Shown here piece by piece: positions 11,993 to 14,049 of a stretch of DNA of 14,049 bases (position 1 is the first letter of the stretch; every line of letters begins with the position of its first letter). This DNA is from a virus. The stretch is taken from UHGV virus genome UHGV-0286042; one strand, 5' to 3'. A model generated the notes under the pieces. It was not told the DNA's origin and did no database searches. It was given only the letters and a program-made list of their open reading frames with translations. The position numbers and the translations under genes were made by a program.

Positions 11993-12669
11993 GCAAATAC
12001 ACCGAACTGATCACTAACTACCATGCTACCAAGCCACTCTTTTTTGACCATATAGATCTGAGCACCCGCCCGCTGATTGATGTGTCCAGCACTATGTCAG
12101 GGCTTGTAACAGCCTTCGATATCGATACTGCTGTCGGTGTACAGCTCGACATCCTCGGTCTGTGGATCGGACGCAGTCGCATAGTCAGCCAGCCAATTAG
12201 CGGAGTTTATTTCAGCTGGGACACTGACGGGCTCGGATATGACCAGGGCATCTGGCAAGGGCCATATGATCCTGATTCTGGCTATACGACGCTGAGTGAT
12301 GAGACGTACCGCATCATTCTGAAAGCGAAAATCGCTATCAACAACTGGGATGGTCGGAACGACTCTCTGCCTCCCATCCTTGACGCTGCGACTGCAGGCT
12401 CAGGCCTGAGGATGCAAATTGTCGACAACCAGGACATGACGATATCGGTTTGGGTATTCCCCGAGACTGATATTTCTGATGTGTCTCTTGAACTGATTGC
12501 CGCTATCAAACAGGGCTATCTCACCGTTAAAGCAGCTGGCGTATGGGCCGGTGATGTTGAAACGCCTTCGGTAGAAGCACCATCCGAGGGCTCTAAATTC
12601 TTTGGGTTTGATATGGATAACGAATACATCGGCGGGTTCGATGTTGGAGCATGGGGGAGATTACTTTAA
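11989..12669 (+). CDS. tail protein of the P2 gpI / Mu gp48 / e14 YmfQ type
   Basis: ORF track 11953..12669; ATG 11989 (MSKYTELITNYHATKPLFF...) overlaps J stop as ATGA; synteny J then YmfQ-like then fibre as in e14/Mu-like tails. Confidence 0.6.
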   Translation: MSKYTELITNYHATKPLFFDHIDLSTRPLIDVSSTMSGLVTAFDIDTAVGVQLDILGLWIGRSRIVSQPISGVYFSWDTDGLGYDQGIWQGPYDPDSGYTTLSDETYRIILKAKIAINNWDGRNDSLPPILDAATAGSGLRMQIVDNQDMTISVWVFPETDISDVSLELIAAIKQGYLTVKAAGVWAGDVETPSVEAPSEGSKFFGFDMDNEYIGGFDVGAWGRLL

Positions 12670-13316
12670 TGGCTGGAACTAATGATTTTAAAGCGTTTGC
12701 GACAGATGCTAATGCAAATGTTACCTCGCAGGAGGAATGGGAGACGCTAACCGCACTGAAGAAAGGATTCTCCTCGGGTAAAGCATCCAGCGCACAGGTC
12801 AGTAAAGCGCTGCGCCAACCGTCGACGATGGCGGCTGTACTGGGGCAGTTTATCGCGAACGCCGAACTGGACGCGCTCGATGATGGTGACGTTGATGGAC
12901 TGGTGGCAAAGCTGGCGACAGCGATTACCACAAACCTTGACTTAGGAGATATCAGTGTTGCAGGTGTTGCGACAGGTAGTATGGGCGAAACCGGATATGC
13001 CATATTTCCGATGATGATTGGCGGTACGCGTAAGACGCTTATTATGCAATGGGGAGTAATGACATCTCTGAGGTCAGGCGACACTGCGGTTATTAATCTG
13101 CCGATTGCTTTTCCTACTATGGTGATGCAGGCATATGCAACACATGATAATGTGACACAAACCGCACGCCCGACAGTATATGCAATTGCTCCAACAAGCC
13201 GAACCACTATCACTGCGACGGCGATGAGCTTACATGCTGACTCAGTGGGTGCTGCAGTGACGCGCGGTAGTGACAGTGATTTGTGTTACGGTCGTTATCT
13301 TGCAATAGGGTACTGA
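12669..13316 (+). CDS. tail fibre protein (short; conserved GC-rich N-terminal part plus AT-rich variable C-terminal part)
   Basis: ORF track 12651..13316; ATG 12669 overlaps upstream stop (TAATGG); N-terminus MAGTNDFKAFATDANANVTSQEEWETLTALKKGFSSGKASSAQVSKALRQ resembles conserved tail-fibre N-termini; followed by tfa. Confidence 0.65.
   Translation: MAGTNDFKAFATDANANVTSQEEWETLTALKKGFSSGKASSAQVSKALRQPSTMAAVLGQFIANAELDALDDGDVDGLVAKLATAITTNLDLGDISVAGVATGSMGETGYAIFPMMIGGTRKTLIMQWGVMTSLRSGDTAVINLPIAFPTMVMQAYATHDNVTQTARPTVYAIAPTSRTTITATAMSLHADSVGAAVTRGSDSDLCYGRYLAIGY
12925..12950 (+). other. candidate Hin/Gin/Pin-family crossover site (degenerate) at constant/variable junction of the tail fibre gene
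   Basis: TTACCACAAACC-TT-GACTTAGGAGAT has partial match to the AAACC-NN-GGTTT cored 26-bp sites of serine invertases (recalled consensus; about 17/24 half-site positions) and coincides with an abrupt GC-to-AT compositional shift. Confidence 0.25.
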
Positions 13317-13317
13317 A

Positions 13318-13752
13318 ATGAATATGAAATATTTCTCTGCATCTGAAAATGCGTTTTATGCCGGAGAGCTTAAAGAAAGCTACATCGCAGCAGACTCATG
13401 GCCTTCTGATGCCTTGGAAGTTGATGAAAGTTTGTATCTTGAGTTTATCGATGAGCCGCCAGCAGGTAAGTATCGTGGAGTGGATGATGCAGGTATGCCC
13501 TGCTGGCTTGAAATTCCTCCACCCACCGCAGAGGAAATGGCATCGAATGCAGAGAATATGAGACAGCAGATCATTGATGAGGCAAATGTTTATATAAACA
13601 AACGTCAGTGGCCTGGAAAAGCAGCGATAGGCCGTTTAAAGGCGGATGAACTGGAACGATATAACCTTTGGCTGGATTACCTGGATGCGCTGGAAGTAGT
13701 AGACACCTCCAGCGCGCCAAACATTAACTGGCCTGATCCTCCGGATGCGTAG
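13318..13752 (+). CDS. tail fibre assembly protein (Tfa chaperone)
   Basis: 144 aa directly downstream of fibre gene; C-terminus ...[14 protein letters not shown] matches the conserved Tfa C-terminal motif (RVDTSTAPDIEWP in lambda Tfa). Confidence 0.7.
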
Positions 13753-13903
13753 GCCATACGGGTTTTGCTGTATCGACACGCATTAGCAAGACCCGGTATT
13801 TCTTCCATTCGGCCAGAGCGACGGTTTCCTCATCCGTCGCGATACCAACATCAACTGCATCCTGCCGCCAGGCTATCTCAGCGTCAGCAATAGCGCGTAA
13901 ACT
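13724..13903 (-). pseudogene. 5'-truncated second tail fibre assembly gene (tfa') in inverted orientation, C-terminal about 60 codons only
   Basis: Minus-strand translation ...[45 protein letters not shown] closely parallels lambda Tfa C-terminus ([48 protein letters not shown], from memory); no plausible N-terminal part; abuts IS3-like sequence. Confidence 0.6.
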
Positions 13904-14049
13904 GCTGGAATAACAGCCCAATGGAACGCTTCTTCAGGAGTCTGAAGAACGAATGGATGCCGGTGGTGGGTTACGTAAGCTTCAGCGAGGCAGCTCACGC
14001 CATAACGGACTATATCGTTGGATATTACAGCGCACTAAGACCGCACGAA
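13900..14049 (+). mobile_element. IS3-family transposase (orfB / InsF-like) C-terminal fragment, 5'-truncated and running off the window end
   Basis: Translation [50 protein letters not shown] matches the conserved C-terminal region of IS3 InsF (recalled: ...[18 protein letters not shown]...[20 protein letters not shown]); upstream frame has a stop at 13891-13893 and is occupied by tfa' on the other strand. Confidence 0.6.

Follow-up and report, generated by a model that had tools for sequence, protein, structure and literature searches.

Introduction

The described systems closest to the locus presented here are the P segment of e14 with its invertase Pin (Escherichia coli K-12), the G segment of Mu with Gin and the C segment of P1 with Cin, in all of which a 26-bp crossover site splits a tail-fibre gene into a constant part and a variable tip. 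The sites of this Din family (hix, gix, cix, pix, mix and bix) have been published (Table 3 of PMC3241671), and inversion of the e14 segment has been shown experimentally (PMC4272514, PMC12529663). Other Din switches have decayed, as is the case for those that left the orphan invertase genes pinQ and pinR of Qin and Rac (PMC12529663). Here we describe the right-hand part of a 14,049-nt stretch of the virus genome UHGV-0286042 (the window, by which we mean the whole stretch analysed). We interpret it, with high confidence, as the right end of a temperate myovirus prophage in which a Din-family invertible fibre segment has decayed, leaving the fibre fixed in one orientation. Sequence comparison places its origin among the switches of the Mu G/Gin, P1 C/Cin and e14 P/Pin class.

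In the intact form of such a locus, an invertase encoded just outside the segment would act on two 26-bp sites that are inverted relative to each other and share their central dinucleotide; one of them lies in the fibre gene and one adjoins the invertase gene. The 5' part of that gene would hold a Fis-dependent recombinational enhancer. Each flip of the segment of about 2 kb would join the constant N-terminal part of the fibre to one of two C-terminal tips, with the Tfa chaperone of that tip encoded directly behind it, and would change receptor specificity in this way. Relatives of the window share with e14 P, Mu G and P1 C the two convergent tfa-type genes in the middle of the segment, the inverted tip and a Gin-homologous invertase just outside; as in e14 P, their half-site TTCTCCCAAACC AA is identical to pixL/pixR. 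Unlike these three segments, the window is down to one site (the left), one tip and one chaperone, plus a stub of the other chaperone. Its central dinucleotide is TT/AA as in pix and cix, not GA as in gix, and its fibre is a short gp53-like protein on a myovirus with a DUF3383 sheath and a DUF2612 wedge, not a Mu S, P1 S or lambdoid Stf fibre. Since it has no invertase and only one site, the locus lacks what defines a functional Din switch and is best filed as a remnant.

Results

An intact tfa gene converges on the stub of a second one

A preliminary description of this DNA had a plus-strand tfa gene ending at 13752 and a second, minus-strand Tfa C-terminal segment at 13724–13903, the two overlapping tail to tail by about 29 bp. 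Coordinates and strands proved correct, and the overlap is exactly 29 bp (13724–13752). The features of the region are collected in Table 1.

Table 1. Coordinates of the switch remnant and of the backbone genes in the 14,049-nt window
Feature	Position	Strand	Evidence or sequence
Tail-fibre gene, 215 residues	12669-13316	+	Pfam Gp53-like_C, E 2.4e-12, in C-terminal half
Orphan left crossover site, Din (Gin/Cin/Pin/Hin) type, 26 bp, inside fibre gene	12925-12950	+	TTACCACAAACC TT GACTTAGGAGAT
tfa, intact tail-fibre assembly chaperone gene, 144 residues	13318-13752	+	Pfam Caudo_TAP, E 1.4e-30, profile 3-130/131
tfa' remnant, last 56-59 codons and stop of alternative chaperone gene	13724-13903	-	Pfam, PHROGs, alignment
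tfa'/IS911 deletion junction, 11 nt, GCGCGTAAACT	13893-13903		Three-way alignment of window, IS911 and NCTC9040 tfa'
IS911 (IS3 family) 3' fragment, C-terminal part of orfB transposase gene, runs off window	13904-14049	+	Identity, Pfam rve_3/rve_2
DUF3383-type sheath, tube protein, tail assembly chaperone, baseplate J, DUF2612 wedge protein	window backbone	+	
Tape measure protein, 755 residues, SLT domain	window backbone	+	

In the expressed fibre gene, the N-terminal part of about 89 codons is the constant part, outside the former invertible segment, and the C-terminal part of about 126 codons is the variable tip, gp53-like and now locked in place for expression; separate PHROGs tail fibre families match the two halves. 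An alternative in-frame ATG at 12651 would give 221 residues, and gene callers give 215 in identical Logan contigs. In length and C-terminus the fibre equals the intact fibres of E. coli NCTC9040 and locus L016. The chaperone gene tfa, which also matches phrog_188 (E 7.8e-55), has the same length in E. coli PigCaeca_2, NCTC9040 and L016.

The minus-strand open reading frame (ORF) 13724–13921 matches Caudo_TAP with E 1.5e-16 over profile positions 74–131 of 131 only, that is, the C-terminal part. Scores against this family (PF02413) are 106.6 bits for tfa and 61.2 bits for the tfa' stub, both above the gathering cut-off of 22.1. Alignment with Tfa proteins is also significant: within the tfa-derived part, 13727–13903, 51 of 59 residues are identical (86%, E 2e-35) to residues 83–141 of the intact 141-residue tfa' product of NCTC9040. 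The alternate set, described earlier as reduced to about 60 codons of tfa', thus keeps 56–59, and the N-terminal codons (about 82) have been deleted. PHROGs labels the stub a tail fibre assembly protein, and the corresponding stretch of PigCaeca_2 is a RefSeq tfa pseudogene with its N-terminus missing.

The 29-bp overlap is kept, despite sequence divergence, in seven of seven relatives (L002, L007, L009, L010, L012, L013 and L014). At the overlap, the stop codon of each tfa gene adjoins its partner's conserved Trp-Pro codons (TGGCCT ... AGGCCA). We considered the overlap as a bidirectional terminator or hairpin and rejected this, the fold of 13715–13775 (-16.9 kcal/mol) having a z of -0.81 against shuffles, which is not significant.

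The stub ends at a deletion scar inside IS911

Thousands of E. coli records contain genes annotated "IS3-like element IS911 family transposase", and the stretch 13893–14049 is 98.7–99.4% identical to these. Homology to this insertion sequence (IS) starts about 240 bp from its right end, inside orfB, and reads towards that end. The left part of IS911 (about 1 kb, comprising the left repeat, orfA and most of orfB) is missing at the junction, leaving the element incomplete; the right inverted repeat was seen in the sister loci described below only, where the fragment runs 86 bp past the point at which the window ends. The 11 nt at the junction fit both parents, as they leave the tfa' frame open and match IS911 at 10 of 11 bases, and in this alignment microhomology at 13893–13903 appears possible. 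With only 89% identity to the closest intact tfa', the crossover cannot be placed to the nucleotide.

The junction lies in the interior of the IS911 transposase gene, away from the ends of the element, and lacks an inverted repeat, which makes it the scar of a deletion and not an insertion site. An adjacent deletion made by the transposase was also considered and is ruled out, since the junction is not at an IS end. The preliminary description had the second fibre segment and the invertase gene "replaced by IS3-like sequence". The assignment to the IS3 family holds, the sequence being the last 240 bp or so of IS911, whereas replacement does not, as the join was made by deletion into IS911 and not by insertion. 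That both parts are missing was borne out: a tblastn search of the window with the NCTC9040 invertase gave no significant match, no coding sequence for a second fibre tip is found in the window, and both are absent downstream in three sister loci too.

A single crossover site remains in the fibre gene

We made a half-site matrix from the published hix, gix, cix, pix, mix and bix sites (PMC3241671) and scanned the window for 26-mers, with 30 shuffles as control. The top 26-mer is 12925–12950, at 15.1 bits, only marginally above the shuffle maximum of 14.4. As in Din-family sites, a 2-bp core is flanked by half-sites of 12 bp each. Conservation is good in the outer half-site (13.1 bits) and poor in the degenerate inner one, which scores 1.9 bits where PigCaeca_2 has 13.3 and NCTC9040 has 7.6; on the other strand the inner half-site reads AAGTC in place of AAACC. 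The site splits the fibre gene into its constant and variable parts, and the boundary between them is clear at this point. Homology to prophages with the same backbone ends at 12938 and homology to the cassette as carried on foreign backbones begins at 12932, so that the two tracts have 7 nt in common (AAACCTT), which lie inside the 26-bp site and include the central TT. The switch had earlier been taken to span from 12669; this is indeed the start of the fibre gene, but not the boundary of the switch, whose anatomy begins at the crossover site, which had gone unnoticed.

Neither a consensus search of the window with three mismatches, which found nothing, nor the matrix scan of its 14 kb, which gave no credible candidate, revealed a partner for this site. 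The next-best 26-mer, 1507–1532 on the plus strand (CTCTCGAAAACC GA CGTATGCAGTCC), has one half that equals the pixL outer half, lacks a second half and has GA as its core; its score is that of shuffled sequence, and the match is probably due to chance. At 12940 the window has a private G-to-A change, which turns the conserved fibre motif L-G-L-G-D into L-D-L-G-D and further degrades the inner half-site. Such a change would be in keeping with a site that came under less constraint once the invertase was lost.

Relatives carry the complete switch, in both orientations

The comparison of the locus with the Mu G, P1 C and e14 P segments had implied a set of missing parts, and intact relatives carry these parts in the predicted order: fibre (+), tfa (+), full tfa' (-), alternative fibre C-terminal segment (-) and serine invertase (+). 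The convergent tfa pair with its 29-bp overlap lies inside complete, invertase-flanked segments in seven relatives. NCTC9040 has the window's own cassette at 93.8% identity, followed by a 117-residue gp53-like tip segment (-) and a 182-residue recombinase (+). The same arrangement is found in ET881 and LT883142, where it adjoins yciI-tonB on two further phage backbones, and MEI148, a dusA-type prophage, has the layout too. The relatives' recombinase aligns over its full length with Mu Gin (PDB 3UJ3; E 1.4e-56).

CH468 is of particular value, as it has the window's own backbone (96% identity over 1–12938) and the full arrangement, followed by the host gene yciI. Both it and TD225-C4, which also lies at yciI-tonB, are 96% identical to the window in their backbones up to the crossover site, and share the outer half-site and TT. 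CH468, whose variable cassette differs, still has tfa' and the second tip as well as the right site and the invertase; the window has the cassette type of NCTC9040 and PigCaeca_2, truncated. Unlike the window, the relatives have both crossover sites. In CH468 the left one is TTACCACAAACC TT CGTTTGGGGGCA, and the right one, just upstream of the invertase gene, is TTCTCCCAAACC AA CCTTTTTTATAA, with a first half and core identical to pixL/pixR. Flipping the CH468 segment in silico joins the constant part in frame to the alternative fibre (...GLGEAAKRNVGNGENQIPDMS...); a search for this flipped junction in E. coli genomes gave no full-length match.

Between CH468 and TD225-C4 the flanks are collinear at 99.5–99.8% identity, the interiors lie on opposite strands, and the breaks fall exactly at both sites. 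Moreover, the centre of the cassette (the two Tfa C-termini and the 29-bp overlap) occurs across genomes in both orientations relative to the expressed fibre. Because near-identical backbones carry the segment in opposite orientations, this comparative evidence indicates that the segment does invert in the window's backbone family, a picture that fits the experiments on e14. Loss of components of the switch within the resident prophage, as in the window, is common among the relatives compared. The recombinase is frameshifted in MEI148 and truncated in S88, and tfa' is frameshifted in LT883142 and truncated in TD225-C4.

The same kind of invertible cassette adjoins yciI-tonB in ET881 (L010), LT883142 (L011), CH468 (L007) and TD225-C4 (L012). 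The left parts at this site are very different, namely a YmfQ-type myovirus, a lambdoid siphovirus with J and Cor, and a myovirus of the window's type, while the invertase protein is identical in ET881, LT883142 and TD225-C4 (WP_000639140.1). This suggests that the right end at the yciI-tonB attachment site was retained while phage bodies were exchanged.

The same scar occurs on other prophage backbones

The identical tfa'-IS911 junction (GCGCGTAAACTGCTGGRATAACAGCCC) is present in three other loci: PigCaeca_2 and the IMG/VR contigs UViG_2778261277_000021 and UViG_2737471827_000006. Among 5426 complete genomes PigCaeca_2 is the only carrier (99.4% over 350 bp, window 13700–14049). No complete E. 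coli genome covers at least 80% of 12400–14049, and exact-junction scans of genome and metagenome contig collections gave 0 matches. Four Logan contigs from four separate runs match the window at 100%, up to 13939.

In the sister loci the IS911 stub runs to the right end of the element (...TTGTTGACCACTTCA) and is followed by a common 88-bp flank (CACGTCGTATGCAAG...) and then by dinI-int-dusA or a P4-like integrase; downstream of the junction none of the three has an invertase or a second tip. In MEI148, where the dusA-type prophage is intact, the flank that follows IS911 maps between the DUF4145 gene and dinI, downstream of the invertase, which points to this as the original location of IS911.

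Fibre tip and tfa are the same in the window and the sister loci at 97% identity. The backbones and constant fibre parts of the sister loci are, by comparison, unrelated or only distantly related to those of the window. The scar is found on three backbones: that of the window, the YmfQ-type dusA prophage of PigCaeca_2, and a myovirus about 65–72% identical to the window backbone. The presence of one scar on other prophage backbones indicates that the decayed cassette spread by recombination. Within the cassette, 13081–13432 of the window (the tip and the 5' part of tfa) is a private allele with about 22 private substitutions, and from 13453 to 14049 the window hardly differs from PigCaeca_2. 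A comparison of L016 with PigCaeca_2 puts the left breakpoint about 60 nt upstream of the crossover site.

The rest of the window

As a whole, the window represents the late genes of a temperate myovirus (head completion, tail and baseplate), all module genes being on the plus strand. The only sizeable minus-strand ORF in the otherwise all-plus baseplate module is 9133–9483 (116 residues), in a slot at about 8703–9675. It has a borderline Pfam match to EACC1 (23.6 bits, equal to the cut-off), a weak PADLOC match to SngB (E 0.002) and a match to phrog_12509 (function unknown). About 1 kb around it has no strong homology to the CH468 prophage, of the same backbone, which has another minus-strand gene (DUF4236) there, and the slot looks like a variable moron slot. 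Directly before the tape measure gene, by analogy with CH468 (L007, 9896–10509), the tail assembly chaperone gene at 3896–4321 is followed by a short overlapping ORF, 4318–4509. Its CH468 counterpart is annotated DUF6889, and the position is the usual one for a chaperone frameshift pair.

Discussion

Taken with the intact relatives, the anatomy of the locus argues for the loss of a working host-range switch in two steps. In the order of events that we infer, IS911 would have inserted first, downstream of the invertase. One illegitimate deletion, possibly by way of microhomology, would then have joined the inverted tfa' near codon 82 to IS911 near position 1010. Lost with it would be some 82 codons at the 5' end of tfa', the alternative tip with the right crossover site, both the invertase and the DUF4145 gene, and about 1 kb of IS911. 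Left over would be the intact fibre gene and chaperone, the orphan site, the tfa' stub of 56–59 codons and an IS911 stub of about 240 bp. With the expressed fibre gene and its chaperone gene both intact and of the usual length, a phage that is otherwise viable should make a single type of fibre. That the fibre is locked, with nothing beyond 14049 restoring the switch, we infer for DNA that lies outside the window.

Several points weigh against this history. The window ends 128–156 bp into the IS911 fragment, and the identical Logan contigs break there too. At the junction the parental tfa' is known only at 89% identity, so that microhomology there is a possibility. The support for flipping at these loci is comparative, and the orphan site could still serve a Pin-like invertase encoded elsewhere in the host genome, provided that a partner for the site exists.

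Were the IS911 sequence the mark of a simple insertion into tfa', the switch could be otherwise complete just beyond the IS, on the far side that is outside view because the window ends inside IS-derived sequence. We consider this most unlikely: the junction lies about 1 kb inside IS911, within orfB, and reads to the right end instead of sitting at an inverted repeat, and the three loci with the identical junction continue into dinI/integrase or a P4-like integrase and not into parts of a switch. It is scarcely credible, in turn, that the convergent tfa pair never belonged to an invertible segment and is a chance product of prophage mosaicism, for example of two abutting fibre modules. Phage fibre regions are highly mosaic and the cassette does have internal recombination tracts, but a pair with the same overlap lies in the complete, invertase-flanked segments of seven relatives, the Din-type site is placed in the fibre gene exactly where backbone homology ends, and the segment is inverted between near-identical backbones.

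A different possibility is that the locus is still switchable or recombinationally active, with a Pin-like invertase of another prophage acting in trans on the orphan site and a distant one. There is precedent in the orphan invertase PinQ of Qin, which has been shown experimentally to act in trans on the e14 P segment (PMC12529663). The joint between backbone and cassette in the window does fall within 12932–12938, including the central TT of the site, and the decayed cassette occurs in three backbones. Din invertases, however, have a strong preference for inverted sites that share a supercoiled molecule and have an enhancer nearby. The inner half-site of the window is degenerate at 1.9 bits, compared with 13.3 in PigCaeca_2, and there is no partner site within 14 kb; the left breakpoint between L016 and PigCaeca_2 falls some 60 nt upstream of the site, and the pattern of single-nucleotide polymorphisms is that of ordinary homologous-recombination tracts inside the cassette. 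We therefore hold such activity in trans to be very unlikely, and what it would produce is, with equally little probability, large inversions or exchange of fibre modules and not a local flip.

A locked remnant left by deletion into IS911 resembles the other decayed Din switches of E. coli (S88, MEI148 and LT883142, and orphan pinQ and pinR of Qin and Rac), in which one or more components were lost in a resident prophage. It differs from them in being the product of a single large deletion into an IS that left an orphan site and not an orphan invertase. For its spread, ordinary homologous recombination in conserved fibre motifs is enough, and invertase-mediated exchange at the orphan site, though conceivable for the window's joint, is not required to account for it. 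A broader proposal, which on present evidence we regard as unlikely, is that the dead cassette (tip, tfa, tfa' stub, IS911 stub and short flank) is a travelling host-range module that moved among at least three unrelated prophage backbones after losing its invertase. Its orphan Din sites would still be substrates for co-resident Pin-like invertases, and recombination in trans would drive fibre-module exchange or large inversions alongside homologous recombination.

Decay of this sort is known biology and an ordinary fate of prophages; only the spread of the dead cassette and the possible use of orphan sites in trans are mildly novel. The use of these observations lies mostly in annotation, as they explain two pseudogene fragments that pipelines leave unexplained, and knowing that fibre specificity is fixed could help host-range studies of the phage or its tail. 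The locus provides a clean example of how a Din-type host-range switch may die, by insertion of an IS followed by deletion, and of a dead cassette that nevertheless still spreads between phage backbones by recombination.

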